64,000 nt of DNA from a phage: sequence record PX423614.1; one strand, 5' to 3'. Under the pieces are notes generated by a model. It was not told where the DNA came from, did not search any database, and was given only the letters and a program-made list of their open reading frames with translations. This document shows, in pieces, positions 1,861-25,684 of the stretch (its first letter is position 1; every line of letters begins with the position of its first letter). The position numbers were made by a program, and so were the translations under genes.

Positions 1861-1868
1861 AGGCGAAT

Positions 1869-3618: not shown

Positions 3619-3627
3619 GGTGATATT

Positions 3628-4254: not shown

Positions 4255-5351
4255 CAACCGTAGCACAAGTTTTTGGATACCGTAACCCTCGCTTATCTGA
4301 ACCGCATCCAAGTATTGCTTTTCAGTGTGGTGTTGGTATTGAGTTAGAAGTCGAAGGTACAACTGACATTGACGCTGATATGTGGGTTTGTACTGAAGAT
4401 GGCTCTCTTCGTGATGGTTGTGAATTAGTATGTGCACGACCTTACAACGGTGAAGAACTACTTCGTGCTATTAACAATCTGAGTGAAGCAGTACAGGATT
4501 CCGGAGCCGAGGGAACTTGGCGCTGCTCCACTCACGTTCATATGGATATGCGTGACGCTGATAGTAATATCCTTAAGAAAGTTATTCTTGGATGGACGTT
4601 CTATGAAAAGATGATGTTCAAATGTTCTGGATACCATCGCTATCGTAGCAACTTCTGTCCAGCTTTTGCTGTCGTTCAAGCACAAGTTATGAATGCTTCG
4701 TCAGCGTTCAACCGAGACGGGGAAGCTTTCTTCCACTCTCTTGTTAATAGCTGGGATAAATATACCTCCCTTAATCTTTTGCCTCTATCTCAATTTGGTT
4801 CTGTTGAGTTCCGTATCTCAGAGCCGAAGTGGAAAAAGAGCCAACTTCTGAATCTGGTCAACCGCTTCTTGGTTCTCAAGAAACTGGCTGTTGAATATGC
4901 AGATTTAGACAATGAAGCTTATGTTGAGAAGTTGAATGAGCTGCGCTTCGCTCCTATGATTCAACATCTACCCCTAGACTATACTCCAAGAGACAGCGAT
5001 CTCACTGAAGGGTATCGTCTTGCTCGTGATATTCTCTTCTGTCGTGAGCAATCTGTAACTTTGGTTGGTCGTGTTCGTGTGCAACAGACTGGCCCTGATG
5101 GTGAAGTCCTTATCAACTTACGTGATATGAATGACTTCTATGGTTTCTTGGGATATGTGCGCGGTAATGCCAACAGTGTCTACGAAGAGATCATGACCTA
5201 CTACACCCCTCAGATTGAAAGCACTCGAATCGCAACGGTTCGTGAAATTCGTCACATATTTGCATTGATGCGTGAATCAGGTAGCAGTGATGATAACGTC
5301 ACTGGTTATATTCCAGACCATCTGGAAATGCAATTAGAACGACTGCTGTAA
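4251..5351 (+). CDS. putative amidoligase (COOH-NH2 ligase, glutamine-synthetase-like superfamily)
   Basis: N-terminal GVGIELEVEG, EDGSLRDGCELV and CSTHVHMD motifs resemble the phage/bacterial amidoligase family; assignment from memory of family signatures. Confidence 0.5.
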   Translation: MTTVAQVFGYRNPRLSEPHPSIAFQCGVGIELEVEGTTDIDADMWVCTEDGSLRDGCELVCARPYNGEELLRAINNLSEAVQDSGAEGTWRCSTHVHMDMRDADSNILKKVILGWTFYEKMMFKCSGYHRYRSNFCPAFAVVQAQVMNASSAFNRDGEAFFHSLVNSWDKYTSLNLLPLSQFGSVEFRISEPKWKKSQLLNLVNRFLVLKKLAVEYADLDNEAYVEKLNELRFAPMIQHLPLDYTPRDSDLTEGYRLARDILFCREQSVTLVGRVRVQQTGPDGEVLINLRDMNDFYGFLGYVRGNANSVYEEIMTYYTPQIESTRIATVREIRHIFALMRESGSSDDNVTGYIPDHLEMQLERLL

Positions 5352-5428
5352 CACAACGGGCGCTCTTATACAGGGCGCATTTAAAGGTTAATTAGATGAA
5401 AGGGTTTACCCTTCAGGTGGATTAGAAA

Positions 5429-7462
5429 ATTTGTGGTATCGTATTAGCTGGCGGCAACATGACCTCAGCAGATTTGGACATTTTCAACCAACTTCTGTAT
5501 GCTGGTGTTTTCCGTGGACAGCACTCAACTGGTGTGTTTGGTCAGCGTAAAGGTGAAAAGCAAGTCTTCTCTTATAAAGAAGCTCTTCCTTCTTATGCTT
5601 TTATGCTCCAGACAGAATATACAAATATTACCAAAGGGCTTACGAACTACGTAGTTCCTCCTTCGTGGATTGTTGGTCACAGCCGACATGCCACTCGTGG
5701 GGCTGTCAATGCTCGAAATGCTCACCCATTTACTCACGGGGATATTACTCTGGTTCATAATGGAACCCTGTTAGATCAAGATCTCCTTCCTGACAGTAAG
5801 CGTTTCGAAGTTGATAGTGAAAACATCTGCCACTCAATTAACACCATTGGAGCAGCAGAGACTATCCAAAAACTGGATGGTGCATTCACTTTGATTTGGC
5901 ATGATGCTAAAGACAACACGCTTCACATTATCCGTAATGATGAGCGTCCTTTCCACCTAGCCCGCTGTGGTTTGGATTGGTTTGGAGCTTCTGAAGAAGC
6001 TATGCTTATGTGGATTTTAGAGCGTTCTAAGTCCCATAAGAACCGTATCAATGACCACTTCGAATGTAAAGTGGGAACTGAGTATATCTTTGATGTGTCT
6101 AACAGTCGTATGACTCTGGTTCAAGAGGTGGAGCACACGCTTCCGGTTTTTACGGTAACGAGTCGCTGGGGCGGCTATTACTCGAACTCCTCTCTTTATC
6201 AGAACCAACAGACAAACAAATCAAGCAGCAGCACAAGCGACATTTACGGAAACAAAGACGACAAGCCCGGCGTGACAAGCGGAGACATTCGTCGTCGTAA
6301 AGCGATTGAAGACCAGAACAAACTGGCTGCCGATCGTGGTCTTCCTTATCGTCGTGATGGTCGTGTGGATATTATTCCTCATGAGTTCCATGCTTATAAC
6401 AACACAGATCGTGGTAAGATGGTTGGTTACATCTACGATGATAAAGCTCAAGAGTATGTCGAAGGGGATGTTCACAACGTAGCCAAAGATGAATATCTTA
6501 AGGCTCTTGAAAACCCAAAGGTAGTATATCGCGGGACGATTGCTTGTATCTCCGAAGTGGACAGTATGATTCGCCTCGTACTAACTTCAGGGCTGTTTGT
6601 TGATGCTACAGATAAGGAGCCTCAAAGCACTACTGCTGATTTTGATGATGATATCCCTTTTGATGCAGAGGACTCCTTCATCACTAAGAATGGTGTAGAA
6701 GTCACTCGTAAGTTCTGGGAATCTCACTCTCATGGTGACTGTGGTGGTTGTGATAAGCACATTGACTGGAAAGATGCTCGTAAGGCTGTGTTTGCTTATC
6801 AGGCATACTGGCATCCAGAATGCTTCGAAGCGTTATCTAAAACCTCTGAAGAGGAAGAAGATGTGCCTTTGGGTGTATGTGCTATCTGTGGTGAAGTCAA
6901 GACTGATTTCGAGTTTGACAACGAAATGAGTAAACTTCGTGGTGAAGACGTTTGTTATATCTGCTCCAAAGAAATCAAAGATAAAGTAAAGAATGTTACT
7001 CTATCTGAAGGTTATATTTGGACTAAAGCAGTAGACACAACCAACCCACGTCGTCCTGAAGTAGCTGTTCGTGTTGATGAACGTATGCTTAGCCGTATGA
7101 TTGTAATGGTCAGCTCAGCAAAACGTTCAGGGGATATTACACTTGCAGATGTTCCTAATTCGTATTTGGAAAAACGTGGTGGTGATACTTATGCCATCTC
7201 TGTTTATGGTCCAAAGAATTCCCCAAAGGAGGTACCCGCTGAGAAAGCGGAGACATTTCCAGAAAAGTCAACCTCTCTCCGAAAAACAGTTGTCAGTTAT
7301 GATGGACAACGAACAGCTGAGTTTACAAAAGCCCTCTGGACTTCAATTGGGTTTTGTGCAGTCTGTTATAAACAAATTCCGTGGCGTGATGCAGAAACTT
7401 GCTCACTGAACAAAGAAAACAGGGTGATCTGTAATTCAGATTACTGTAAAGGTAAACACTAA
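5429..7462 (+). CDS. class II (Ntn) glutamine amidotransferase with C-terminal multi-CxxC zinc-ribbon extension; probable ATT start
   Basis: In-frame CGIV immediately upstream of the ATG at 5459 (TAG-AAA-ATT-TGT-GGT-ATC-GTA); AGGTGG RBS 8 nt before ATT 5429; HSRHATRG...NAHPF...HNGTL motifs typical of PurF/GlmS/AsnB-type GATase; C-terminal CGGC/CAIC/CYIC/CAVC pairs. Confidence 0.7.
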   Translation: MCGIVLAGGNMTSADLDIFNQLLYAGVFRGQHSTGVFGQRKGEKQVFSYKEALPSYAFMLQTEYTNITKGLTNYVVPPSWIVGHSRHATRGAVNARNAHPFTHGDITLVHNGTLLDQDLLPDSKRFEVDSENICHSINTIGAAETIQKLDGAFTLIWHDAKDNTLHIIRNDERPFHLARCGLDWFGASEEAMLMWILERSKSHKNRINDHFECKVGTEYIFDVSNSRMTLVQEVEHTLPVFTVTSRWGGYYSNSSLYQNQQTNKSSSSTSDIYGNKDDKPGVTSGDIRRRKAIEDQNKLAADRGLPYRRDGRVDIIPHEFHAYNNTDRGKMVGYIYDDKAQEYVEGDVHNVAKDEYLKALENPKVVYRGTIACISEVDSMIRLVLTSGLFVDATDKEPQSTTADFDDDIPFDAEDSFITKNGVEVTRKFWESHSHGDCGGCDKHIDWKDARKAVFAYQAYWHPECFEALSKTSEEEEDVPLGVCAICGEVKTDFEFDNEMSKLRGEDVCYICSKEIKDKVKNVTLSEGYIWTKAVDTTNPRRPEVAVRVDERMLSRMIVMVSSAKRSGDITLADVPNSYLEKRGGDTYAISVYGPKNSPKEVPAEKAETFPEKSTSLRKTVVSYDGQRTAEFTKALWTSIGFCAVCYKQIPWRDAETCSLNKENRVICNSDYCKGKH

Positions 7463-7473
7463 GAGGTATAGTT

Positions 7474-7707
7474 ATGGAAGTTCGTAAACTGATGTTGGAT
7501 AACGTGGTAACTACCCGCCGTATTCCGATGACAAGCACAGGATGTGATAACCTCCGAGCAATTCAGAAGTGGATGCAAGAAGGTATTGGGAAGCTGGTTG
7601 ACTCTCCAGTAGAAATCCCTTTTCCAACCGTTATCAATAACGTGTTGGCTGACTATGTTAAAATGAAGGGGATTAAAGTTGAGCCTCATGTCAAGCAAGG
7701 GAGCTAA
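7474..7707 (+). CDS. hypothetical small protein (77 aa)
   Basis: ORF track; RBS-like AAGAGG upstream. Confidence 0.4.
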   Translation: MEVRKLMLDNVVTTRRIPMTSTGCDNLRAIQKWMQEGIGKLVDSPVEIPFPTVINNVLADYVKMKGIKVEPHVKQGS

Positions 7708-7909
7708 GCCTCACCTGACAATGCTGGAGTATCAACAACTCCGACTTCAACAACTGGTAACGGAGCAGCGAAAGCTGTATCCGTTTGCTTTTAACTTAAT
7801 CGACTCTCCAAGCGATGCCCAAGAAGACGAAATGTTCGCTGAGTATTGGGCAATCGAAGCTAAAATTCAATCCTGTCGTAACGAAATTCTTAAACTAAAA
7901 GGTATCTAA
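7679..7909 (+). CDS. hypothetical small protein (76 aa or shorter)
   Basis: ORF track; overlaps previous ORF, true start may be internal. Confidence 0.35.
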   Translation: MSLMSSKGAKPHLTMLEYQQLRLQQLVTEQRKLYPFAFNLIDSPSDAQEDEMFAEYWAIEAKIQSCRNEILKLKGI

Positions 7910-7911
7910 AA

Positions 7912-9147
7912 ATGACTACTCGTATCCGTGTTCTTCCGTATGGCCCGTCTGATTCTGTTAACGCTCTGGTATCTGCTATCAGTGATACTATCCGTGATGA
8001 ACGCATCAATGCTAACGTGATGGGGCTTCTTTCAGAGAATAGCCGCTGGCGTTCTCGTGAAGGTGATGTGGTTGTTAACTACGGGAACCGTCGCTATCCT
8101 GAATCATTCTTTGGTTCTGCAACCGTCCTTAACCGTACCGCAGCCTTATATATGGCAGCGAACAAACGTCGTGCTTTCAGTGTGATGGACCAAGCAGGTG
8201 TTAAAACTGTGGAATACACAGATGTTCAAGAGACTGCTCAGGAGTGGTCAAACACTGGTAATATTGTGTATGAGCGCCATGAGCTGACTGGTCACTCTGG
8301 TTCGGGCATTGTTGTTGTAGAACCGGGTGATTCAATTGGTCAAGCTGAACTGTACACCAAAGGTATTCAAGGCCCACGTCGTGAATGGCGTGTCCATGTG
8401 TTCAAAGGTGTAATCACCTATGTTCAGAAGAAGATTCGTCGCAATGGTTATCGCGAAGACCCTAACTATCGTGAAGATATTCGTAATCACCACACTGGCT
8501 GGGTTTACTCAAGCTCCTTCACAGATGCTCCGAATGACGCCTCTCTGATCAATGCAGTGAAAGCTGTTGAATCAATGGGTCTGGATTTCGGTGCAGTTGA
8601 TATTATCACCAAAGGTCAAGAAGCGTGGGTACTGGAAGTTAATACAGCACCGGGCCTGACTGGTACAACTCTGGATACTTACCGTCATAACATTCTTGAG
8701 TTTGTTAAAGCTCAAAACCCTCTCTATACTCCTCAGTATAAAGTGGTTTACCAGACTCCGATTGAAGATGGAGACGGTGAGTTGGTGGATGATATTGAAA
8801 GTGCTGATGATGAAAACTTTGCACTGGAAGGACAAGTAGCACAGCCGATTGATTCAGTTGATGTGGTTCCTGAAGAAATGCAACTGGAAGGTCAGATGAA
8901 TACTCAAACTATTCGTAATGCACCTACTGGCTACACTTTGTCTCGTGGCTACTGGATTGCAAATATCCGTCATGTCCACAACAACCTGCAACCGAATGCA
9001 ATGTCTGCCAATGTCATCCTGTTCTGTGATGGTCGTAACTTCTACCGCAGTGGTTGGAACGTTCCGGTCAATCCAGTCCAGATTCATAACCCTCGCAAGT
9101 TAGAGTCTGTCAATGTTGAAGGTAGCGAAGTAGCAGTAACTCTGTAA
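7912..9147 (+). CDS. ATP-grasp family ligase (RimK/glutathione-synthetase-like)
   Basis: C-terminal half shows GxDxxxxxG...WVLEVNTAPGL, the characteristic ATP-grasp E-V-N-x-x-PG region, plus basic-loop region RREWRVHVFKG. Confidence 0.6.
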   Translation: MTTRIRVLPYGPSDSVNALVSAISDTIRDERINANVMGLLSENSRWRSREGDVVVNYGNRRYPESFFGSATVLNRTAALYMAANKRRAFSVMDQAGVKTVEYTDVQETAQEWSNTGNIVYERHELTGHSGSGIVVVEPGDSIGQAELYTKGIQGPRREWRVHVFKGVITYVQKKIRRNGYREDPNYREDIRNHHTGWVYSSSFTDAPNDASLINAVKAVESMGLDFGAVDIITKGQEAWVLEVNTAPGLTGTTLDTYRHNILEFVKAQNPLYTPQYKVVYQTPIEDGDGELVDDIESADDENFALEGQVAQPIDSVDVVPEEMQLEGQMNTQTIRNAPTGYTLSRGYWIANIRHVHNNLQPNAMSANVILFCDGRNFYRSGWNVPVNPVQIHNPRKLESVNVEGSEVAVTL

Positions 9148-9173
9148 TTAAATTAAACAAAAAGGAATTTGTA

Positions 9174-9416
9174 ATGTTGTCTATCGAAGATTTGATCAGC
9201 CGTGGAATGACCGAAGAAAAAGAGCCTCTGATTGTAGGCTCTCGTAAAGCTATCAACCAACTCTGTGAAGAGTTCGGTATCACAAATAAGAGAATGATTG
9301 GTAATCAGTTCTCTGCAATCATCACCTTCCTCAAACGAGGTGATAAATGTTCAATGGAATGTGCTGAGCGTATCATCGCAATTGCACAAGCAGATAAGGG
9401 AGTAACAAGTCTGTGA
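9174..9416 (+). CDS. hypothetical small protein (80 aa)
   Basis: ORF track. Confidence 0.4.
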   Translation: MLSIEDLISRGMTEEKEPLIVGSRKAINQLCEEFGITNKRMIGNQFSAIITFLKRGDKCSMECAERIIAIAQADKGVTSL

Positions 9417-9598
9417 ATAAATACACAATCATGTTTCGTACAATGTCAGCAGAAGGAAATATTCAATCTCTGGACATTCAAGCAGATCGCTTTGAATCAC
9501 TTGGAACAAGTGTTAACTTCTTCCGAGGTACAGAGCTAGTGGGTACATTCCAATCTGATGTGTTGACTGGTGTGATCAAACACTTCGAAGTAGAATAA
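9413..9598 (+). CDS. hypothetical small protein (61 aa)
   Basis: ORF track; start overlaps previous stop. Confidence 0.35.
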   Translation: MNKYTIMFRTMSAEGNIQSLDIQADRFESLGTSVNFFRGTELVGTFQSDVLTGVIKHFEVE

Positions 9599-9655
9599 TT
9601 TGCTTTAGCCTCTTCGAAAGAGGAGGCTAGTTCGAATTTAACTAGAGGTTGTAAA

Positions 9656-10072
9656 ATGGTTAATAATAAACTGGATATGTTTAAAAGTCGTATCTTAGAT
9701 GTAGAGTATTCCAAAAACCTCTTTGAGAAGCACAAGAAAGAGGCAAAGGAAGAGTTAGAAAGTCTTCTGAAAGATGAAGAGATTCCTCTCTTTGATCGTT
9801 GGTGCTTGTTTCTGGAACACGGTGACTTATTTCCTGTAGCTTCAAGTGTAATTAGTAGAGCTGTTACAAGTGCAGTGGAAGGTTTTTATGACTTGGAAAG
9901 ATACCGAACTTATATCTTCTCTGATATTTTTGAAGAATACTGGTTTGGTGAAAAAGAGTCAATTTCTGATGAAACCAAGAAAGCCATTAAGGGATGTTTT
10001 GAAGAATTCCCTGAAAAGCCAATCCGATCAATCATCTTCTCTGGATATTCTGGTTTCCAACATGATTGGTAA
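9656..10072 (+). CDS. hypothetical protein (138 aa)
   Basis: ORF track; RBS-like AGAGG upstream. Confidence 0.5.
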   Translation: MVNNKLDMFKSRILDVEYSKNLFEKHKKEAKEELESLLKDEEIPLFDRWCLFLEHGDLFPVASSVISRAVTSAVEGFYDLERYRTYIFSDIFEEYWFGEKESISDETKKAIKGCFEEFPEKPIRSIIFSGYSGFQHDW

Positions 10073-10078
10073 GCAGCC

Positions 10079-10276
10079 ATGAAAAAGATTCTATTTTTCC
10101 TCTCCTTATTCAGTGTGTCAGCGATCGCCGCTGATGAATGCATCTCTAAAGATTCAGGGAGAGGTCAAATCATAACTCAATGCGGCAGCCATGTAACAGT
10201 TGTCGATTCTATAACTCAAACAGTTCTCGTGTGTAACGGGACTTCTTGTACAAAAGAAATTTTAAACAAAAGGTAA
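10079..10276 (+). CDS. small secreted cysteine-rich protein (65 aa)
   Basis: N-terminal signal-like MKKILFFLSLFSVSAIAA; six Cys in mature part. Confidence 0.45.
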   Translation: MKKILFFLSLFSVSAIAADECISKDSGRGQIITQCGSHVTVVDSITQTVLVCNGTSCTKEILNKR

Positions 10277-10280
10277 TGTA

Positions 10281-10712
10281 ATGTCTGATAAAGTATTAGT
10301 TGCAACGTATGGTTCTCTTCGTAAAGGTCAACACAACCACGCTATCAATGCTCGTGCAGGTGGTGTGTCTATTGGTGAAGGGTGGACAGTAAACAACTGT
10401 AACCTGTATCAGTATTGCACAGCATACTTCCCAAGTGTATCTTTGGAGCATGACAGCAATGGTAAGCCTGTTCGTGTAGAAGTCTTTGAAACAACCCAAG
10501 CTGGTCTGGAAGGTCCGTATGACGGTCTGGAAGGTCATCGTGGTAATGATAACCCATACACCTTTTACAAGCGTACACTGATTCCAGTATTATTGGACAG
10601 CGGTGAAACTGTGGAAGCGTGGATTTATCACATCGACGAAGAACAAGATGTTCTGGTTGAATCTGGTGACTGGACAGCATATCTGGCAGGTGAGAAGGAT
10701 GACAGTAACTGA
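10281..10712 (+). CDS. gamma-glutamyl cyclotransferase-like (AIG2/GGCT fold) protein
   Basis: N-terminal YGSLRKGQHNH matches the YGSL-x-x-G-x-x-NH signature of GGCT/AIG2-like enzymes. Confidence 0.5.
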   Translation: MSDKVLVATYGSLRKGQHNHAINARAGGVSIGEGWTVNNCNLYQYCTAYFPSVSLEHDSNGKPVRVEVFETTQAGLEGPYDGLEGHRGNDNPYTFYKRTLIPVLLDSGETVEAWIYHIDEEQDVLVESGDWTAYLAGEKDDSN

Positions 10713-13275: not shown

Positions 13276-14748
13276 ATGATTAAGATTCCATTGTCTGAAT
13301 TGAACCTTCAAGAAGGAGAAGCCCTCAGTGTAGGGCTTGACCTGATTCGTAATTTGATCAGAGATAACGTAGTCCCTGATGGCATCTATCCTGTTATTGC
13401 AGGTGGTGCTATCCGTGATACGTTCTTCCAAAATAGAACTCCGAATGATGTTGATATCTTCCTAGTTCAAGGAGGGTTTCGTTGGAACACTCGTCAGGAA
13501 AACAGCCCTGCTAACGTAGGTAATGCTGCACTTTTCCTTGACAACTTCTTATCTTGGACAGAAAGTAAGGGGCTTCAGGTTACATCTCGACTAATTCAGC
13601 CTGTTAACGGGACAACCTATGCTGAAGCGCTTTTCACTTTCCAAGAGATTCTGGAAATTGAGATTGATCAAGTTAAAATCCAGATGATGATTAATCTACC
13701 TTTGGATATGGATACTTTAAGCCGTCGCTTCCCTATGATCTGTCAAGGGTTTATGACTCTTGGTAATCTGTATGTGTCAAACGAAGGTTTGTTTGCAATG
13801 TCATACACTCGTGACATTCCTGTGGTATCTAGTCGTGAAATGAAGTACGTTCACAAGAAGTGGCCTGAAGCAACTGTTGCAGTTTATAGCAGTTCTACCG
13901 AATATATGCACCTTGCAATGGGAGCTTTCGGTGAGCCAGAAGTTCACCTGATTAGTGATTTAGTTGGACCTATGGCTGGTGTAAATTTATATCAGAATCA
14001 GCGTCGTCATTATACCCTGAAGATGATGGAAACTATATTAAACATTCCTCAGGAAAGGGGTCGTAGTTATCTGGACGAGGAAGTTAACCTACAGACAGAA
14101 TGGTCTAGTGGATTAACCACTATAGGTGCTGAAGCAATCACGCAGCCTTGGACTCCGGGAACTAACAGACGAGATCTTCAAGCTTTTAATGAAGAAACTT
14201 CTCGAACAGTTCGAGGAGGTGTTGTAGGGTATAACGTACAACCTCATGAAAGACCTCGTGACACTTTCACTGGCAGTTTTGGTAGTGCACGCTCTTCTGG
14301 AGTGGATACTCGTACATGGCATGTCCAAGGAGGAACTGCTCGTCCTATTCCCTCTCCGTCAATGGATGATTTGCAGCGTTCTCGTCGTTCATGGGAAACA
14401 GTAAGCTCTGTTGTTCAGGGTCTACGTGCTAGAGATATTGAACGTGTAGAAGTTGGTGATTTGCCAACCCCTACAGAAGATCGAGTATCAGCTATAGCGG
14501 CTCGTGAAGCTGCTCATATTGGTTTTGCATCATTAACTAATGACGCTAACGAAGCTCCTCGACCTGTTGGTCGTCGTAATGGTCTAGCTCACTCTGACAC
14601 TGCACTTGGTGCAGAACTACGAGCAGCAGCTCGTGAGCTATCTGGTGAGCTTCACAACAACCTAGCAGGTGTTACACTATCTCGTGAAACAGCTCGTAAT
14701 ATGATTAATAATTTGGCATCATCTGTACAAGGAAACAGAAACTCATGA
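13276..14748 (+). CDS. Pol-beta-superfamily nucleotidyltransferase (CCA-adding/poly(A)-polymerase-like head) with disordered R/S/G-rich C-terminus
   Basis: AGGAIRD-x13-DVDIF fits the G[GS]-x9-13-DxD nucleotidyltransferase motif; C-terminal ~200 aa low complexity. Confidence 0.5.
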   Translation: MIKIPLSELNLQEGEALSVGLDLIRNLIRDNVVPDGIYPVIAGGAIRDTFFQNRTPNDVDIFLVQGGFRWNTRQENSPANVGNAALFLDNFLSWTESKGLQVTSRLIQPVNGTTYAEALFTFQEILEIEIDQVKIQMMINLPLDMDTLSRRFPMICQGFMTLGNLYVSNEGLFAMSYTRDIPVVSSREMKYVHKKWPEATVAVYSSSTEYMHLAMGAFGEPEVHLISDLVGPMAGVNLYQNQRRHYTLKMMETILNIPQERGRSYLDEEVNLQTEWSSGLTTIGAEAITQPWTPGTNRRDLQAFNEETSRTVRGGVVGYNVQPHERPRDTFTGSFGSARSSGVDTRTWHVQGGTARPIPSPSMDDLQRSRRSWETVSSVVQGLRARDIERVEVGDLPTPTEDRVSAIAAREAAHIGFASLTNDANEAPRPVGRRNGLAHSDTALGAELRAAARELSGELHNNLAGVTLSRETARNMINNLASSVQGNRNS

Positions 14749-15278
14749 GTCTTTTAGGTTCTCAAGAATTACACAGCGTTATCGATAATGGCTTTTTAGA
14801 TGCGGAGCATAAATATGTTAACGCTGCTAGCGTGGATATCCGTATTGGTGATACTATCCTTGTTGAAGAACAGGCTGATGGTATTGTTGACATTGATGCT
14901 AAAGAAAACCTCAAGTGGAAAGAAGTGAAAATCCCTGAAGATGGCATTGTCATTACTCCGGGACAGTTCTTCTTAGCTCACTCTATGGAAGAATTTAACC
15001 TTCCAGACAATATTTCAAGTCTGTTTGTACTCCGCTCCTCAATGGCTCGTTGTGGTTTAAACCACTTACATGCTGGGTGGGCTGATGCAGGGTTTAACAG
15101 CAGTAAGCTAACCTTTGAGTTCCATAACGTTACCCACAATCACAGCTTACGAGTTCGTGCTGGGATGCGTGTTGGTCAAATGGTTATGTTTGAACACTCT
15201 CACGCTGGTGATGATTCCTATGCAGTGAAGGGTCGTTATAATAACTCTGATGGGGTTGTTGCTTCTAAAGGCGTATAA
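14745..15278 (+). CDS. dcd: dCTP deaminase / dUTPase-family protein
   Basis: SVDIRIGD, LRSSMARCGL, GWADAGFN and GMRVGQMV resemble Dcd motifs (VDVRLG, GRSSLARLGL). Confidence 0.7.
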   Translation: MSLLGSQELHSVIDNGFLDAEHKYVNAASVDIRIGDTILVEEQADGIVDIDAKENLKWKEVKIPEDGIVITPGQFFLAHSMEEFNLPDNISSLFVLRSSMARCGLNHLHAGWADAGFNSSKLTFEFHNVTHNHSLRVRAGMRVGQMVMFEHSHAGDDSYAVKGRYNNSDGVVASKGV

Positions 15279-15281
15279 TTG

Positions 15282-15494
15282 ATGGAGTTTGGAACAATGA
15301 AAAGACGTTGGGTAGTCCGCGTTCACTGGAGCAGTGGTACAGAATCAATGGGTATCAGAAACACTCGTCAAGAAGCTCGCGCTCATAAGAAGTTCTTATT
15401 AAGCTGCGAAAGTACTATTGACAAGATCACTATCCACAAAGCTCAGGACTTTAAATCAGGTCGTTTCTATATCAGCGGAAAGGTACATTACTAA
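15282..15494 (+). CDS. small basic protein, paralogue family A member 1
   Basis: W-x-V-x-V-x-W...TRQEAR...KITIHK...KVHY shared with three other ORFs. Confidence 0.5.
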   Translation: MEFGTMKRRWVVRVHWSSGTESMGIRNTRQEARAHKKFLLSCESTIDKITIHKAQDFKSGRFYISGKVHY

Positions 15495-15700
15495 TGGCTA
15501 AATTATGGGCAGTTCGTGTTAAATGGGCTAACAAAGATCTTGGTGGTGATTGTCTTAAACTGTTTGACACACGACAAGAAGCTCGTCTTGCTAAGAAAGC
15601 TACAAAAGCTTTAGGTCTCGCTGAAAAAGTAGAGATTCATCGTTGGTTTCAAAATGATAATAACAGTGCAGGATCCTTGACTAGCAAGGTTCATTACTAG
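15494..15700 (+). CDS. small basic protein, paralogue family A member 2
   Basis: Same pattern (WAVRVKW...TRQEAR...KVEIHR...KVHY); start overlaps upstream stop (TAATG). Confidence 0.5.
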   Translation: MAKLWAVRVKWANKDLGGDCLKLFDTRQEARLAKKATKALGLAEKVEIHRWFQNDNNSAGSLTSKVHY

Positions 15701-15770
15701 TTGGTAGTAGATATGATAACTCTCAAATGTATATACAGTATAAGAATATTGTATGAAACAGGAGAGAGTT

Positions 15771-16100
15771 ATGTTAGATTTGAGTAAAGTGGCCCCGCCA
15801 TCTGAAGAGATTAGCAAAGCTAAAGTTATGCAGCAGTTCTATCATCGTGATATGCTTGGTCGTTATATCAAGAATCGTGATGTTGTTGCATGGTCTATTG
15901 GAAATCAAGGTTATCTTCTCAAAGTGTTGCAAGTTACTGGCTCAACAGCCAAGCGAGTCAAAGTCTATGACCCTGAAATGGGGCGTTCTAAATCAGTAGA
16001 CCCTCAGAATTGCATTGTTATCACACAACAGGTCATGGATAACATTGCTCGTAATGTAGCTAATTCAACTAACTTAGAAGGGGATGCACCTAATGCATAA
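15771..16100 (+). CDS. hypothetical protein (109 aa)
   Basis: ATG at 15771 with RBS AGGAGAG; within track ORF 15753..16100. Confidence 0.5.
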   Translation: MLDLSKVAPPSEEISKAKVMQQFYHRDMLGRYIKNRDVVAWSIGNQGYLLKVLQVTGSTAKRVKVYDPEMGRSKSVDPQNCIVITQQVMDNIARNVANSTNLEGDAPNA

Positions 16101-16659
16101 TAATGTCTTCGACTTACCTGAACTAACACGAGTGGGTTCTAGCAACCCATTCTCTACTACTGACTCTTCTATCTCTCGTCTTGAGGGAATGAATAAACTG
16201 ATTAGCGGTAACAGCTTAGAACACATCTTGTGTGGTGTGCAAGCTAACCTTGAACTTCTACACATCAAAGCAAAGAACTACCACTGGAACGTCTCTGGAG
16301 CTGGTTTCCAAGGTGTTCATGGTATGTTCGATGAGTTAGAAGATTATGCTCGTGAGGCAGGCGACCGAATAGCAGAGCGTATGCGCTTTCACTGTGTTAA
16401 AGTGGATGCTACTGCTAGTAACTATTTAGGTCATGCTTGGTTCCGAGAAGGTAACGCTGATCTCGACATGGACGGTATGCTTTCCGACATGTGCATGACT
16501 CTGATGTGTATCATTGAAAAGATGGACGAGTTTGATTCAGACTTGTGCACTTATCCAGTTGACCAGAGTATGCTTCAAGAAATTAATGAAGGTCTTGGCA
16601 AGTTCTGCTACTTCGTCAAGAGCAACATGTCCCACTCCAGTGGTGACGTGTCTTACTAA
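16093..16659 (+). CDS. Dps-like ferritin-fold protein
   Basis: NLELLHIKAKNYHWNVSGAGFQGVHGMFDELEDYAREAGDRIAERM matches the Dps signature H-x-YHWNV-G-x-F-x-x-H...FEE...D-x-x-AERI. Confidence 0.6.
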   Translation: MHNNVFDLPELTRVGSSNPFSTTDSSISRLEGMNKLISGNSLEHILCGVQANLELLHIKAKNYHWNVSGAGFQGVHGMFDELEDYAREAGDRIAERMRFHCVKVDATASNYLGHAWFREGNADLDMDGMLSDMCMTLMCIIEKMDEFDSDLCTYPVDQSMLQEINEGLGKFCYFVKSNMSHSSGDVSY

Positions 16660-16722
16660 TCAAACCTCCGCCCTGTCTCTTTGTTTAAGAGGTGGGGCGA
16701 ACTTCTTTATAAGGATATGAGT

Positions 16723-16902
16723 ATGTTTTCAGCAATCGTATGGTCTGTATGGGCAATTCTTGTTGGTGGTATCGTTTATCTGGCTCAGAAGCAGATGCTT
16801 AAAGAGAATCCGAATGATGCTAAACCTATTAAACATGGCAGCATTGCTCTGGTAATTTTCTCTGTTGTTATTCCTTTCCTTCTCCACCTGTTGACTGCAT
16901 AA
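16723..16902 (+). CDS. small two-TM membrane protein (paralogue B1)
   Basis: ATG 16723 with AAGGA RBS; two hydrophobic segments flanking KENPNDAKPIKHG. Confidence 0.5.
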   Translation: MFSAIVWSVWAILVGGIVYLAQKQMLKENPNDAKPIKHGSIALVIFSVVIPFLLHLLTA

Positions 16903-16911
16903 GGGTTTGAT

Positions 16912-17100
16912 ATGATTTCACTGATTGTGTGGGCCGTGTGGTCGTTAATAGTTGGTACTGTTATATATATATAAAGCTCGAAATTTAGCAATTAAAGAAA
17001 ACCCAGCAGAAGAGGATGTTAAAGCTATCAAGCTAGGTAGTGTTGTTCTGGTACATTTTGCTATAACACTACCTCTTGTTATTATTCTTTGTATGCTATA
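16912..17100 (+). pseudogene. interrupted paralogue of the 16723 membrane protein; reading frame broken at a (TA)6 tract
   Basis: MISLIVWAVWSLIVGTVIYI then TAA inside TATATATATATA (16962-16973); downstream +1-shifted frame encodes KARNLAIKENPAEEDVKAIKLGSVVLVHFAITLPLVIILCML, homologous to the upstream gene. Confidence 0.45.
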
Positions 17101-17291
17101 AGGAATCCAAAGAGTGAAACTAAACCTACCTGAAGAATTACAAGCACATGCCATTATCGTTAGTGGCTGTGTGATGGGTCTTGGTCAGACAAAGAAGATT
17201 GCTCATGACTTAGCAAAAGGTCAGTATAAATCTTTTATTGTTGTTCCTGCTACCCAGCGTCATATCAACCTGTTTATTAACAAGGAATAGA

Positions 17292-17567
17292 ATGAGTAAA
17301 GTAATTAAGTTTTATAGTAATTCATGTGCTCCGTGTGCAGCTATGGCTCCTGTGTTTAAGAAGGTTGTGGCTGACTATAGTGTAGAAGTTGAAGAAGTAA
17401 ATATCTCTGAAGGTGATGGTCGAGAGCGAGCCGTTGAATATGGTGTTCGCAGTATCCCAGCCTTTGTCGTCCCTGATAAGAACAGTGGTGCTCATTATAG
17501 TTTATCAGGTATGCAAACTGAATCTAATCTCCGTGCATTTTTAGACACGGCTCTGAAAGGTATTTAA
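17292..17567 (+). CDS. thioredoxin-like protein
   Basis: CAPC active-site motif in thioredoxin context (KFYSNSCAPCAAMAPVF...IPAFVV); RBS AAGGAA upstream. Confidence 0.7.
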   Translation: MSKVIKFYSNSCAPCAAMAPVFKKVVADYSVEVEEVNISEGDGRERAVEYGVRSIPAFVVPDKNSGAHYSLSGMQTESNLRAFLDTALKGI

Positions 17568-17568
17568 T

Positions 17569-17784
17569 ATGGAAAAGAAACCTTGGATTACTTTTTGGGT
17601 AGTTAAGTGGTTTAATTTTGATAGCACAATCCCTAGCCTCTCCTCGTACACAACACGGAGAGAGGCTCGCCGCTTTAAGCGAGCTTTAAAAATTGCTAAC
17701 ACTGGTGCTTCTAAGATCACAATCCAGAAAGGGATTGAAACAGAAAGTGGAAGCAATCTGATTTATAAAAAGATTTACTATTAA
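17569..17784 (+). CDS. small basic protein, paralogue family A member 3
   Basis: WVVKW...TRREARRFKRALK...KITIQK...KIYY. Confidence 0.5.
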   Translation: MEKKPWITFWVVKWFNFDSTIPSLSSYTTRREARRFKRALKIANTGASKITIQKGIETESGSNLIYKKIYY

Positions 17785-17799
17785 AGAATAGGTGCTATT

Positions 17800-18012
17800 A
17801 TGACTCAAGGAAAAGATGTGTATTTTTGGGCTGTTGTTTCTGAATATCCAGAGATGGAGTATCCAAGGGTTAACACGTGTGCTACTCGTAAAACTGCACG
17901 ATGCACTAAACGTGCCCTCAAGAAGATGGGTCGTGATTCGAAGATTTCAATCCACCGTGCATATATGACAGCAGCGGGTTTCATTGTAGTAACACCAAAA
18001 GTTTATTATTAA
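17800..18012 (+). CDS. small basic protein, paralogue family A member 4
   Basis: FWAVV...TRKTARCTKRALK...KISIHR...KVYY. Confidence 0.5.
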   Translation: MTQGKDVYFWAVVSEYPEMEYPRVNTCATRKTARCTKRALKKMGRDSKISIHRAYMTAAGFIVVTPKVYY

Positions 18013-18026
18013 GGAAGAGTTCAAGG

Positions 18027-18677
18027 ATGAATGAACAATTACAAGCAACACTAATTGAAGCAATGGGAAATGACAAAACCGTTGTTAACGCAGCTCGGGT
18101 TTCTTTTGGAGTCACTCGTGAAGGAGAGTTAAATGAACGTGATGAACGCCTTATCAAATTCCTTGCCAGAGAAAAACACTGTACACCATTCCGTCATCCG
18201 ACAATTAGCTTCCGATGCAAAGCGCCAATCGCAATTGCGAGGCAGCTGGGCAAGCATCAAGTTGGATTCTCGTGGAACGAAATGTCCCGGCGGTATAAAG
18301 ATGGAGCAGTTGAACTCTTCATCCCTAAAGAGATTTTTGAAAGACCTTCGGACCTCCATGCAGGTGCGGGGAATCTCCTCACCACAGGAGCACAAAACTC
18401 TGCACTAGTCCTGATTAATCGGGCATATGAAACAGCTCTTGAGTCATATGATGAGTTGATTAAGTTCATCGCTCCAGAGCAAGCTCGATTCGTACTACCT
18501 CAGGGAATGATCACTGAGTGGGTGTGGACAGGCTCTTTATATGGTTGGTCAGAGTTGTGTCGTCAGCGACTGTCCGACCATGCTCAGTATGAAGTACGAG
18601 TGTTCGCATCAACGGTCGATGAAGAGCTTCGTAAACTTTTCCCAATCTCATGGGACGCACTACGTGAAGCCCACTAA
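18027..18677 (+). CDS. thyX: ThyX-like flavin-dependent thymidylate synthase family protein with variant signature
   Basis: HCTPFRHPTISF and KHQ-x8-S...RRY resemble the ThyX H-x-S-P-F-EH and RHR-x7-8-S motifs, but RHR is replaced by KHQ. Confidence 0.5.
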   Translation: MNEQLQATLIEAMGNDKTVVNAARVSFGVTREGELNERDERLIKFLAREKHCTPFRHPTISFRCKAPIAIARQLGKHQVGFSWNEMSRRYKDGAVELFIPKEIFERPSDLHAGAGNLLTTGAQNSALVLINRAYETALESYDELIKFIAPEQARFVLPQGMITEWVWTGSLYGWSELCRQRLSDHAQYEVRVFASTVDEELRKLFPISWDALREAH

Positions 18678-18849
18678 AGTGTGTAGCTTCTGTCAAAAGC
18701 AGAAGCTTCTTATCAATTTCAAGCTGAACGAGGAAACAGGTTTGGGTCATGCTTTTTGTCATGATTGCAGGTACTACCTTGAACAGAAGCAACACATAAA
18801 CTGGTTGCATTACTACAAACCTAACACCTACAAGCACAAGGTTATCTAA
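18664..18849 (+). CDS. small Cys-rich (zinc-ribbon-like) protein, possible GTG start
   Basis: In-frame GTG at 18664 after the ThyX-like stop; CSFCQK...CHDC pairs. Confidence 0.25.
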   Translation: MKPTKVCSFCQKQKLLINFKLNEETGLGHAFCHDCRYYLEQKQHINWLHYYKPNTYKHKVI

Positions 18850-19329
18850 ATGAAAGCTATTTTTGAAGGAAGAGAATATGATGTTCCTGAGTGGACCAAA
18901 TACATAGCCCGCGATTGTGATAATCAGGTTTGGGCATATGGAAATACACGACCTATGTTTAATGAAAACACTGGCAGTTGGTCTAATATGTCAAAACTAC
19001 CGGGATATATTCGGTTGCTTGGTTCTTCTAGGCGTCCTGTAGGTTTCGCTGCTGACTCTCTTGTTGAGGTCGGTGTTGAAAAAGGGGTAGACAAGCCAGA
19101 AACAATTTGGGTATTGTCTTCGAGTACTCCAATCAAAGGGAGTCGTGGGATTTCCTTCTACGTTGAGCCTGTCGCTTACTTCAAAAAGAAGCCAACCACC
19201 AACTCTCTGATGTTAAAGAACATTCCTTATTCCCAAGTTGCTACTCTGTTAGATAATGGAACAGTGCTTGTTGAGAATAATGGGACAAATCAAATCTTTT
19301 ATGATTTAGAAGAAAGGGTTTTGGAATGA
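18850..19329 (+). CDS. hypothetical protein (159 aa)
   Basis: ORF track. Confidence 0.5.
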   Translation: MKAIFEGREYDVPEWTKYIARDCDNQVWAYGNTRPMFNENTGSWSNMSKLPGYIRLLGSSRRPVGFAADSLVEVGVEKGVDKPETIWVLSSSTPIKGSRGISFYVEPVAYFKKKPTTNSLMLKNIPYSQVATLLDNGTVLVENNGTNQIFYDLEERVLE

Positions 19330-19646
19330 TCAACAATAATACATTTAGGACTGGTAACGGAAATGAAATCAGTCCTGCTGAAGTGATTAAACGACACAGA
19401 ACACAGATGCTTATCCACTCCTATTTGTATTATTGGTTGGATGACCCAATCTGGTCTGACGATAAGTGGCAACAAGTGGCTGATGACTTAACCACCTTGC
19501 AAGAGATGTATCCTGAGCCTATTGGATTCTTCGATTCAGAGTTCAATGGATGGAATGGCTCCACTGGTATGCATCTTCCTCATGACGAGCGTATAGCTTG
19601 TATGGCTACTGAAGTATACCGTTTACATAAGGACAAATCAATCTGA
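19326..19646 (+). CDS. hypothetical protein (106 aa)
   Basis: ORF track; ATGA overlap with upstream gene. Confidence 0.5.
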   Translation: MINNNTFRTGNGNEISPAEVIKRHRTQMLIHSYLYYWLDDPIWSDDKWQQVADDLTTLQEMYPEPIGFFDSEFNGWNGSTGMHLPHDERIACMATEVYRLHKDKSI

Positions 19647-21861: not shown

Positions 21862-23556
21862 GTGATGGATAACCCTGATAAGTTACCTTTCATAACGGAG
21901 ATGACAGTCGCTGATATAATCTCAAAACAGGCGAAGCATGGAGTCAACTTCAACAGAAGAAACGCTCGGTGGTTTGTTCACCTTCTCAAAGAGATTATTG
22001 TCAATATTGATAAAGAACTGATTCCTCTCCTCCCCAAAATGCGGGTGGATGGTTCAACTTATTCCAAACCTTTTAAGAAGTCCGGTGCTTTACAGAAGTG
22101 GCCTCAACTCTATTGTGATAGGGTTGGTCTTAAAAGAGAAGATATCGGTGGGGCGTTTACTTGCGTTGAGTATGTAGACTTTGACCCATCAAAAGATGCA
22201 CGTATCAAAGAAGCCTTGATGGATGAAGGTTTTATACCTCCAGAGTGGAATTATTCTAAGAAACCTTGGAATACTTTTGAAATTCGTAAAGCTATGAAGA
22301 AGTATGGTACATACTCTGCATGGTATTCTGCTTGGATTCGAGGTAACGCTAAAGAGAAACAGACAGCAGAGATGATAGATGCTGATATCCGAAGGTTTTT
22401 GGATAAACACTTCCGTTATCATACTGTCAATTATATGAAAGCCTATGTCAGCGGTTTAGGTCTTAACCCTAACAGGAAGAAGCCTGTAACCTTTGATGAA
22501 ATCAAAAAAGTTTTGGCTACATCAAACAAGTGGCCTACAGCCCCTACAAACCTTGAGGAGACTCTTGAAGAGGGGCTTGGGGGTGAGCTAGGGGGTGTAG
22601 GAAGTTTGCTTAAGAGACGCGTTGTAGCGGCTCACAGGCTAGGTTTGATTAGCGGGCTTATCGACAAGGAACGTAAAGATGGTAAGTTGTCCGCCGAAGC
22701 TAATAGCTGCGCTACTCCGACATTTCGTTTTAAACATCGCATTGTTGTTAATATTCCTTCTCGCGGTTTGTTTGGTCACGAGTGCCGCAGTCTTTTTCAA
22801 TCTGACTATTCCTCAGACGATAGTCATAACCATCCTTTCATCATTACCAACCATATCCCTGATGGGTGTTACGTACGAAAGGGTACTAACATTATCTATG
22901 AAATGGGAAAACCGGGCAAGAAAGACAAACCAATAGGTGCTTATAAATTTTATGTACCTGCTGGTCGTGAAGTCTTCTTAGGTTATGATGGCTCTGGTCT
23001 TGAGCTGAGGATGCTCGCTCACTACCTTATCAAAGAGTGTCGTGAGATGCTCGCTGAAGCAGAGCGGGAAAACAACCCAGCTAAGAAACGGGAAGCTGAA
23101 CGCGGTCTAGCTTCTGCTGTTATGTACAGAGATATTCTTTTAGAAGGAGATATTCACTCACATAACCAAAAACTTGCTGGCCTTCCTACTCGTGATAATG
23201 CTAAAACATTTATCTACGCATTCAACTACGGAGCTGGTGACGCTAAGTTAGGAAGCATCGTAGGTGGTGGCTCTGACGAAGGGGCTATCATGAGAGCAAG
23301 ATTCTTAGCAGAGAATCCTTGTATTGCAATCCTTATTGAACGTATGACAGAGAAAGCACAAAGTGGATATATCTACGGTGTGGATGGACGTCGTATTACA
23401 ATGAGAAGAGATGCAACTGGAAAGGTTATGGTCCATAAAGCCTTAAATACGCTCCTACAGAGCGCTGGGGCGATTGTTATGAAGTATGCAATGCTATTCC
23501 TCAATAAATGGATTGAGCGTGATGGTGTTCGTTGTGCGAAGGTTATCGACATGCAT
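21862..23556 (+). CDS. family A DNA polymerase, polymerase domain, exon 1 (ends within motif C)
   Basis: Motif A YDGSGLELR, motif B RDNAKTFIYAFNYGAG; track ORF continues to a stop at 23577, but reading stops being polymerase-like after ...AKVIDMH. Confidence 0.65.
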
Positions 23557-24164
23557 AAACTTTCATTGTGCATGTAAAAGTTGGTGAACTCGGTGAAACC
23601 CTACCATTAAGTTGGGGGCAATACCGAGCTAAGCTATTAGGAGATGATATGGCTAAGAAAACTCTTGTTTTGGAAACAACCGAAACAGGGTGTATCATCC
23701 CTATCTCACACAAACTTAACAAAGATGGTTATTTCAGAAAAGTAATAGATGGCAAATGGGTCATGTATCATAGATATGTTTGGGAAGAATCTTTTGGTTC
23801 TATTCCTGATGGTTATGAAATAAATCACAAATGCAAGAATAGGGCTTGTTCCAATCTTGAGCACTTAGAAATGATTGAAGGTTCAGAACATGCAATAGAA
23901 TCAAACACTGGAAGAAATGGAGATAGACAAGAAGCTGCAAGGCTTTATTGGCTAGAAACAGAATGCTCTGGTGTACATCTTGCAGAGAAGTTTGGTGTGA
24001 GCTTCGGAATCGGTTGTAGATGGATTCGGAAGTGGAAAGTGTAGAGACTATCCTAAGGGAGTAGGGGGTTAACAGGGAAACCCTCGAAGCGCCAACAACA
24101 GCAAATTAGCTATGCTGTTATGATATAGTCCGATACCCGAAGTAATTTGGGAATAACATAAATG
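23557..24164 (+). mobile_element. putative group I intron carrying an HNH homing endonuclease ORF, inserted at polymerase motif C
   Basis: Upstream exon ends with T (cat), insert ends with G, downstream codons GAT GAA restore ...VIDMH|DEGQF (HDE motif C); an HNH ORF lies inside. Confidence 0.5.
23649..24044 (+). CDS. HNH homing endonuclease
   Basis: RBS AGGAG before ATG 23649; YEINHKCKNRACSNLEHLE HNH motif. Confidence 0.65.
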   Translation: MAKKTLVLETTETGCIIPISHKLNKDGYFRKVIDGKWVMYHRYVWEESFGSIPDGYEINHKCKNRACSNLEHLEMIEGSEHAIESNTGRNGDRQEAARLYWLETECSGVHLAEKFGVSFGIGCRWIRKWKV

Positions 24165-25291: not shown

Positions 25292-25684
25292 ATGAAGATT
25301 GGCTTAGATTATGACGACACTTTTACAGCGGACAAAGAGATGTGGACACATATCATAGGACTTATGAAGTCCCGTGGTCATGATGTTCGTATCGTGACTT
25401 ACCGATTCGCTGAACCTAATGGGTATACAAATGAAGAACTACTGGCAGATGCAGCAAGTCTAGATATTCCTGTTATCTTTTGCAACGGTGTTCAGAAGGA
25501 TTCCGTCACTCAGAGCTTGGGTTTCTTTGTGGATGTTTGGATTGATGACTTCCCTGTAGGTATCCCTAAAATGGACCACCTAGATGGTATGCTGAAGGGC
25601 GTAAGGCTTAATGACCTTAGAGCAGCACCTCCGGTAGAAATAGCCTCTCCTGTATACTCTGAAGAGCCTCTGGTGATACGATGA
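25292..25684 (+). CDS. HAD-superfamily phosphatase-like protein (possible 5'-deoxynucleotidase)
   Basis: N-terminal IGLDYDDTF matches HAD motif I DxDx[TV]; RBS AAGGAG. Confidence 0.45.
   Translation: MKIGLDYDDTFTADKEMWTHIIGLMKSRGHDVRIVTYRFAEPNGYTNEELLADAASLDIPVIFCNGVQKDSVTQSLGFFVDVWIDDFPVGIPKMDHLDGMLKGVRLNDLRAAPPVEIASPVYSEEPLVIR

Follow-up and report, generated by a model that had tools for sequence, protein, structure and literature searches.

The dcd–thyX locus

Phage sequence record PX423614.1 carries two genes of pyrimidine deoxynucleotide metabolism: one for a deoxycytidine triphosphate (dCTP) deaminase of the Dcd family and one for a flavin-dependent thymidylate synthase, ThyX, whose substrate-binding motif reads KHQ-x8-S in place of RHR-x7-S. 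The window analysed here is the whole stretch of 64,000 nucleotides (nt) from that record, read as one strand. It belongs to a phiEco32-like podophage of Escherichia coli (Kuravirus, Gordonclarkvirinae) and has a GC content of ~0.42 overall, ranging from 0.38 to 0.46. When positions 14000–19500 are compared with phage genomes by megablast, they are 93.9% identical to Escherichia phage AnnaHegner_Bas87 (Bas87) at 98% coverage, ~94% identical to IME267 and vB_EcoP-101114UKE3, and 92% identical to ECBP2. The syntenic order in Bas87 is DNA polymerase exonuclease subunit, nucleotidyltransferase, dCTP deaminase, small hypothetical genes, DNA-binding protein, thioredoxin, thymidylate synthase, LigA-like domain, and PhoH. 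The annotation of phiEco32 relatives (Bas87, IME267, and ECBP2) already gives Dcd as dCTP deaminase and ThyX as thymidylate synthase, and the phiEco32/Kuravirus genes (YP_001671809 and YP_001671817, cited in the record of phage 7-11; Bas87_0055 and Bas87_0068) are orthologues that share both order and annotation with those of the window.

A sequence-only reading of the window had named the two genes and had read the KHQ motif as a possible sign that the substrate or the chemistry is altered. Together with an amide-ligase cluster in the same window, the motif was thought to raise the possibility of a non-canonical thymidine, with ordinary synthesis of thymidine triphosphate (dTTP) considered equally consistent. 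Both genes are indeed where they had been placed, and they match the respective Pfam families and pass the NCBIfam equivalog cut-offs.

Family membership and fold of ThyX

The thyX open reading frame (ORF) matches the Pfam family Thy1 (PF02511) with an E-value of 1.4e-42 and 146.1 bits (cut-off 24.8), covering 190 of the 191 profile positions, and scores 123.4 bits against the NCBIfam equivalog TIGR02170 (cut-off 87.9). Solved structures in the PDB that match include ThyX of Thermus thermophilus (6j61, 6e-29) and Thermotoga maritima (1kq4, 3e-26). Modelled by AlphaFold from 26 homologues, the protein reaches a predicted local distance difference test score (pLDDT) of 94.1, and Foldseek superimposes the model on T. 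maritima ThyX structures with template-modelling (TM) scores of 0.84–0.86 at E ~1e-17. Fold and profile agree on membership, with curated cut-offs exceeded over the full domain. On the grounds of homology and context, the phage enzyme very probably makes thymidine monophosphate (dTMP) from deoxyuridine monophosphate (dUMP).

The KHQ motif

Alignment with the T. maritima and T. thermophilus enzymes bears out the replacement of RHR by KHQ-x8-S, which lies at nt 18252–18287. In the HMMER alignment, the phage segment ARQLGKHQVGFSWNEMSRRY pairs with T. maritima ARQWFRHR-IASYNELSGRY, such that K76, H77, and Q78 correspond to R78, H79, and R80 of T. maritima, with one extra residue ahead of the serine. 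The T. maritima enzyme (TM0449; 1kq4, 1o26) has its fold and catalytic residues in common with phage ThyX at ~31–33% identity overall; the differences in the motif region are R78 to K, R80 to Q, the one-residue insertion, and G89 to R.

Conservation was mapped by aligning 247 sequences of the subfamily with the same two enzymes, and T. maritima numbering is used below. Residues conserved over the 247 sequences are S30, H53, H59, Q75, H79, N85, E86, S88, R90, Y91, E144, R147, R174, and Q180, which are described as making contact with dUMP, folate, and flavin. Those that contact dUMP or folate (Q75, E86, S88, R90, R147, R174, H53, and E144) are all found in phage ThyX and are near-invariant in the set. 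Position 78 is lysine instead of arginine across the subfamily, a conservative change, while position 80, the third arginine of RHR, is variable (Q, K, T, H, V, or E) and R80 is therefore unconstrained. The one-residue insertion contains a near-invariant glycine throughout the subfamily, and G89 is replaced by arginine in ~243 of the 247 sequences, yielding SRRY rather than SGRY. R165 and N169 also differ in the subfamily, but they differ in the T. thermophilus enzyme as well. A role for ThyX in modifying deoxycytidine monophosphate (dCMP) was considered and ruled out, since the uracil-contacting residues are all conserved.

In RHR enzymes, the three side chains are placed at the phosphate and ribityl groups of flavin adenine dinucleotide and at the dUMP phosphate (PMC6514825, PMC3498832). 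In PBCV-1 ThyX, residue 89 can place its side chain in the pocket for the dUMP phosphate (PMC3498832). Position 89 is glycine or alanine in the RHR enzymes examined (T. maritima, T. thermophilus, Mycobacterium phage BeanWater, and PolB), and it is arginine in the K-H-x and K-Y enzymes compared. This covariation supports a relocation of the arginine from 80 to 89. The phosphate-binding loop would have been rebuilt: the first arginine becomes lysine, the histidine is kept, the third arginine becomes dispensable, and an extra residue brings in the near-invariant glycine. The invariant arginine of SRRY at position 89 probably restores to the phosphate pocket the guanidinium that is missing at position 80, with help from an altered backbone around the inserted glycine.

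Absence of the RHR motif could also point to a relic, decayed or no longer catalytic, such as a regulator that binds nucleotides. Against this, the motif and the catalytic residues are near-invariant among homologues of 39–97% identity, and the ORF is full-length, confidently folded, and above the equivalog cut-off. The probability of a relic is close to negligible.

Distribution and genomic context of K-H-x/SRRY ThyX

KHQ-x8-S is present in each of the 120 closest 90%-identity cluster representatives (53–97% identity), in which the 20-residue string is nearly identical. Its retention in all 120 means that KHQ is not a chance change. When 1.84 billion cluster representatives were searched exhaustively with HMMER, 366 matched at E ≤ 1e-30, and the motif was read in the best 150 of them (50%-identity clusters, 39–53% identical). 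Wherever it could be parsed, it conformed to [K/R]-H-[Q/K/T/H/V…]-x-Gly-…-[N/S]-E-x-S-R-R-Y, and RHR-x7 occurred in none of the 150. By tblastn, ThyX matches 1203 phage records. About 107 of these have at least 60% identity and correspond to Gordonclarkvirinae and the 7-11 group. At least 600 stretches in IMG/VR match as well.

The phages that carry such an enzyme are diverse. Salmonella phage 7-11 has the phiEco32-type replication module with Dcd, ThyX, and amidoligase genes, without the nucleotidyltransferase. In Erwinia phage Y2 (Chaseviridae), a KHQ ThyX lies directly upstream of primase/helicase, and the module continues with DNA polymerase, a homologue of the deoxynucleoside monophosphate (dNMP) kinase, and dUTPase; Dcd and amidoligases are absent from it. 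Further examples are found in Zobellviridae (Lentibacter ICBM1 and Pseudomonas FBPa8), in EK8, an N4-like phage of the Schitoviridae, and in a T4-like cyanophage fragment. The last of these is labelled “Prochlorococcus”, and the locus was rejected as a host gene on account of its T4-like content with a gp32-like neighbour.

Contexts were surveyed by tblastn with the window proteins at 82 viral loci, of which 33 span 12 kb or more. The most common neighbours of ThyX are primase/helicase (30 loci) and DNA polymerase (25). Homologues of GATase, ATP-grasp, GGCT, and Dcd occur in only two loci, both of the 7-11 type, and a homologue of the nucleotidyltransferase in none of the 82. Since its genes are confined to those two loci, the KHQ motif does not travel with the amide-ligase cluster. 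The proposed tie between the two is not supported, as this ThyX branch resides in replication modules of many unrelated phages without amidoligases.

The branch is not restricted to viruses. In a scan of cellular genomes, one per species, the K-H-x/SRRY and K-Y/SRRY types were both located on large bacterial contigs. For instance, a 1.79-Mb Spirochaetia chromosome encodes a KHQ ThyX, 44% identical to the phage enzyme, which follows citrate synthase, aldo-keto reductase, and SDR genes and abuts pyrD, a pyrF-pyrE fusion, pyrB, and pyrC (assigned by Pfam), with synteny in a second species. On a Chloroflexota contig, a KHQ ThyX lies between a pyruvate dehydrogenase E2 gene and an MFS transporter. 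These settings are of a housekeeping kind, and dTMP synthesis is therefore the only sensible role for ThyX there. Loci labelled “Nitrosopelagicus” and Phenylobacterium were not used as cellular evidence, their ORF content being viral or prophage-like.

By these sequence comparisons, KHQ-x8-S is the usual form of the motif in a large ThyX subfamily whose members are mainly viral. As the signature of a branch that keeps all other residues in contact with dUMP and folate, it is not evidence of new chemistry, and the suggestion that it marks an altered substrate or reaction is not supported. The deviation is common to a whole subfamily that includes chromosomal bacterial genes, so RHR-x7-S describes only part of the ThyX family.

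Two further motif types were seen. In a third class of ThyX, ARQWWK-Y-x-x-G/A-S-…(long insert)…-WNESSRRY, tyrosine replaces the motif histidine. This class is present in chromosomes of Fusibacter, where the gene lies among ackA, plsX, coaD, and recG-like genes, and of other Firmicutes, in settings of a housekeeping kind, as well as in Streptomyces phage Starbow and Bacillus phage BSP7. In addition, a 318-aa ThyX with RHT-x8-SRRY is encoded on a 559-kb contig (JACCDX010832861) of eukaryotic assembly GCA_013572995.1; with VWA, AAA, DUF5760, and glycosyltransferase genes as neighbours, the contig looks giant-virus-derived.

The dCTP deaminase

The dcd ORF matches Pfam DCD (PF22769) with an E-value of 1.5e-34 and 119.7 bits (cut-off 27), NCBIfam TIGR02274 with 106.6 bits (cut-off 92.8), and PHROG 1663 with an E-value of 7.5e-59. 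Its motifs RSSxxRxGL (RSSmaRcGL) and D-x-GF…T-x-E(125) align with the catalytic positions of 4xjc and 2qxx. Among solved structures, its matches are 4xjc (1.1e-14), 2qxx/2qlp (~3e-13), Methanocaldococcus jannaschii 1ogh (9.1e-8), and E. coli 1xs1 (6.6e-7). The first, 4xjc, is the bifunctional dCTP deaminase:dUTPase of Bacillus halodurans, and 2qxx/2qlp, from Mycobacterium tuberculosis, are of the same kind; 1ogh is labelled bifunctional by its depositors. The phage protein and 4xjc are both 177 aa long, and it shares the catalytic motifs of 4xjc and of M. tuberculosis 2qxx/2qlp. The monofunctional E. coli enzyme is also a significant match but ranks below the bifunctional relatives. With bifunctional enzymes as its best solved relatives, phage Dcd may likewise be a dCTP deaminase:dUTPase that makes dUMP directly.

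Probable supply of thymidylate

In all likelihood, Dcd and ThyX form a conventional supply line from dCTP through dUMP and dTMP to dTTP, serving a genome of 42% GC. Dcd would deaminate dCTP either to deoxyuridine triphosphate (dUTP), which host Dut would then hydrolyse, or, if bifunctional, to dUMP and pyrophosphate. ThyX would reductively methylate dUMP to dTMP with reduced flavin and methylene-tetrahydrofolate, and phosphorylation by the dNMP kinase of the phage and the NDP kinase of the host would complete the route to dTTP. The purpose that we infer is thymidylate for rapid replication of a phage with ~42% GC in a host with ~51% GC. Such a supply would work without need of host ThyA and would spare DHFR capacity.

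A parallel is provided by PBCV-1, in which a viral dCMP/dCTP deaminase (A596R) and ThyX (A674R) shift the dCTP:dTTP ratio toward the lower-GC virus (PMC10142491). Like PBCV-1, the phage has a lower GC content than its host and pairs a dC-deaminating enzyme with ThyX. The components differ in descent, as PBCV-1 ThyX is distant from the phage enzyme (E 4e-9) and has glutamine at position 89 (PMC3498832), and its deaminase is a dual dCMP/dCTP enzyme of another family than Dcd.

Restriction sites and DNA modification

Several restriction sites are strongly under-represented in the window. CCWGG occurs 4 times against 83 expected and GATC 118 times against 282, while GAGCTC (15.3 expected, P 2e-7), CTGCAG (14.5 expected, P 5e-7), and CCATGG (6.9 expected) are absent. 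GGGCTC and GAGCCC are missing too, such that no variant of GRGCYC is left. Non-palindromic hexamers occur as expected (mean z 0.01, standard deviation 0.95). Such strong avoidance of T-containing sites implies that the phage DNA is cleavable there and argues against a protective modification of its T. Other sites are present, namely 14 for EcoRI, 20 for EcoRV, 8 for EcoKI, and more than 100 for EcoP1, and those of EcoRI and EcoRV are not depleted.

Several points weigh against conventional thymidylate supply. The literal motif RHR-x7-S is lacking from the phage enzyme, which has KHQ-x8-S with the histidine and serine retained, and no K-H-x/SRRY enzyme was found among the solved ThyX structures in the PDB or the characterised enzymes in the literature searched. 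The cellular KHQ genes look like viral captures, and the Spirochaetia gene probably is one: its closest relatives are environmental proteins, many of them on ~43 kb contigs, and a homologue search seeded with it returned no cultured organism. Gordonclarkvirinae are described as “remarkably resistant to RM systems” (restriction-modification systems), with no known protection (PMC11990801). As EcoRI, EcoRV, and EcoKI sites are present, this resistance makes DNA modification somewhere in the group possible. Avoidance of sites was considered as the cause of the resistance seen in BASEL and is ruled out for EcoRI, EcoRV, EcoKI, and EcoP1, whose sites the window contains. On the DNA composition or restriction digests of Kuravirus, the literature yielded nothing besides the BASEL statement.

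The BASEL authors suggested, from the conserved locus of Dcd and nucleotidyltransferase, that deoxyuridine (dU) replaces thymidine (PMC11990801). In such a genome, as in PBS1, Dcd would make dUTP for incorporation, and the avoidance of sites would be compatible with it in that many restriction enzymes could still cut dU-DNA. ThyX speaks against a dU genome. It is intact and conserved, at 60% identity or more in ~107 related phage genomes, and would turn dUMP into dTMP; in a dU-DNA phage of the PBS1/AR9 type, one would expect dTMP synthesis to be absent or neutralised, along with a Ung inhibitor and accumulation of dUTP. The nearest solved relatives of Dcd are bifunctional and release dUMP in place of dUTP, and in phage 7-11 and its relatives Dcd and ThyX occur with no nucleotidyltransferase. 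Neither a Ugi-like function nor a dTMPase was identified, though many small ORFs of the window are uncharacterised. Replacement of thymidine by dU is very unlikely on this evidence.

A different route to restriction-resistant DNA would be a KHQ enzyme of altered chemistry, releasing for instance 5-hydroxymethyl-dUMP or an exocyclic methylene and feeding thymidine hypermodification by the amidoligase/GATase/ATP-grasp cluster. The exocyclic methylene of ThyX could in principle be trapped by water, which counts in favour of this proposal. Such an intermediate has been described (PMC8989533). The proposal also draws on the unexplained RM resistance of the subfamily in vivo despite the presence of sites, on a cluster of unknown function, and on the lack of a characterised KHQ-type enzyme. 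Yet hundreds of lineages that lack amidoligases have this motif and active-site set too, as do bacteria at housekeeping loci, and Kuravirus ThyX cannot be distinguished from the K-H-x enzymes of those lineages. Known thymidine hypermodification in SPO1, ViI, M6, and phiW-14 employs a ThyA-family dUMP hydroxymethylase, a 5-hydroxymethyluracil (5-HMU) DNA kinase (5-HMUDK), and aGPT-Pplase, pyridoxal phosphate-dependent, or radical-SAM enzymes (PMC5889632, PMC8989533). The window resembles these pathways in having a pyrimidine-metabolism set and a dNMP kinase-like P-loop protein, but its synthase is of the ThyX type. Among ~30 proteins from positions 270–31587, ahead of the structural half of the window (32–64 kb), scanned with Pfam, none matched the ThyA-type hydroxymethylase, 5-HMU DNA kinase, aGPT-Pplase, or other families of these pathways, and the sole kinase among them matches the dNMP-kinase PHROG. 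The annotation of the Bas87 stretch covered lists neither a DNA glycosyltransferase nor a further thymidylate synthase. Avoidance of T-containing sites would, moreover, be needless if T were bulkily modified. Altered chemistry is extremely improbable.

There is also little probability that Kuravirus DNA carries an undescribed pyrimidine modification that explains the RM resistance and for which Dcd and ThyX supply or create the precursor, perhaps with the nucleotidyltransferase or the amidoligase cluster. N4 relatives and Wifcevirus in BASEL are RM-resistant too, again without explanation (PMC11990801). Because they are resistant without known modification, the phenotype alone does not imply a modified base. 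The sequence-only reading is partly sustained: of its two possibilities, ordinary dTTP synthesis is supported, non-canonical thymidine is not, and the evidence separates them.

Other genes of the window

Coordinates of the genes discussed are collected in Table 1. Among those named by the sequence-only reading, the P-loop kinase proved to be a P-loop protein. Its similarity in Pfam and the PDB is limited to the P-loop level, with nothing significant beyond, and the dTMP to dTDP step is its predicted role. The supposed HAD-like phosphatase has a pattern that fits HAD motifs, but there is no match in Pfam, NCBIfam, or the PDB to support it.

The putative nucleotidyltransferase gene overlaps the start of dcd with its stop codon. 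The protein has no sequence match in Pfam, NCBIfam, or the PDB, and its homologues form 22 clusters of at least 83% identity that are confined to Kuravirus and absent from 7-11. An AlphaFold model of the N-terminal 250 aa is poor (pLDDT 45.8), and Foldseek returns weak, unspecific matches to Pol-beta nucleotidyltransferases (E 0.02–0.2).

The amide-ligase cluster does exist, with COOH-NH2_lig, Amidoligase_2, GATase, RimK-like ATP-grasp, and GGACT at ~2767–10712. Its members are 405- and 316-aa proteins without family match, a COOH-NH2 ligase, a 208-aa unknown, Amidoligase_2, a 667-aa class-II GATase, RimK-like ATP-grasp, DUF7020, and GGACT. The cluster is partly common to 7-11 and not to other phages with KHQ ThyX.

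Between dcd and thyX lie a thioredoxin gene, whose product may be a redox partner or a polymerase accessory, and four paralogous ORFs of ~70 aa that share W-[AV]-V, TR[QRK]xAR, K[IV]xI[HQ][KR], and a C-terminal K[VI][HY]Y. The ferritin/Dps-like protein is called “DNA-binding protein” in relatives and occurs in 7-11 too. Further along, a 106-aa NAD+-ligase domain Ia stands alone without the ligase catalytic domain, and is annotated “DNA ligase” in Bas87. An HNH homing endonuclease gene found directly upstream of thyX in Bas87 (locus 22195–22662) is absent from the window at ~18012–18027. The HNH_3 gene of the window sits after DNA polymerase.

Table 1. Genes and motifs of the window, with coordinates and basis of assignment.
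Feature	Coordinates	Strand	Basis
Amide-ligase cluster, phiEco32-type	643–10712	+	Family and PHROG matches
Putative nucleotidyltransferase, 490 aa, with GGAIRD…DVD Pol-beta-type head and ~240-aa low-complexity tail	13276–14748	+	PHROG 12715 (E 1.8e-165)
dCTP deaminase, Dcd family, 177 aa	14745–15278	+	Pfam, NCBIfam, PHROG, PDB alignments
~70-aa paralogous ORFs (four)	15279–15494, 15494–15700, 17569–17784, 17800–18012	+	Shared motifs
Ferritin/Dps-like protein	16084–16659	+	PF00210 (E 7e-8)
Thioredoxin	17292–17567	+	PF00085 (E 9e-13); Bas87 “thioredoxin domain”
Flavin-dependent thymidylate synthase ThyX, 216 aa, K-H-x/SRRY subfamily	18027–18677	+	Pfam, NCBIfam, PDB, AlphaFold model
ThyX motif K76-H77-Q78-V-G80-F-S-W-N84-E85-M-S87-R88-R89-Y90 (T. 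maritima R78-H79-R80…N85-E86-L-S88-G89-R90-Y91)	18252–18296	+	Alignments
NAD+-ligase domain Ia, 106 aa	19326–19646	+	PF22745 (E 1e-33)
HNH_3 gene	23568–24044
130-aa protein with DYDDT…T…DD (DxDxT…DD) pattern	25292–25684	+	PHROG 4919 (function unknown)
P-loop dNMP kinase-like protein	29584–30180	+	PHROG 139 (E 1.4e-40); Bas87 annotation dNMP kinase

Implications

The KHQ anomaly is a family-level variant and should not serve as a marker of exotic DNA chemistry. ThyX comprises clades beyond RHR-x7-S, among them a large virus-centred clade with K-H-x-x-Gly…SRRY and a Firmicutes/actinophage clade with K-Y…SRRY, in which the third arginine has apparently moved to position 89 and for which no characterised member is known. 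These non-RHR clades matter both for the design of ThyX inhibitors and for the annotation of viral auxiliary metabolic genes. For Gordonclarkvirinae, the intactness of ThyX, the similarity of Dcd to enzymes that form dUMP, and the strong avoidance of several T-containing sites argue against both dU in place of T and bulky modification of T, and the cause of the restriction resistance of these phages is to be sought elsewhere.

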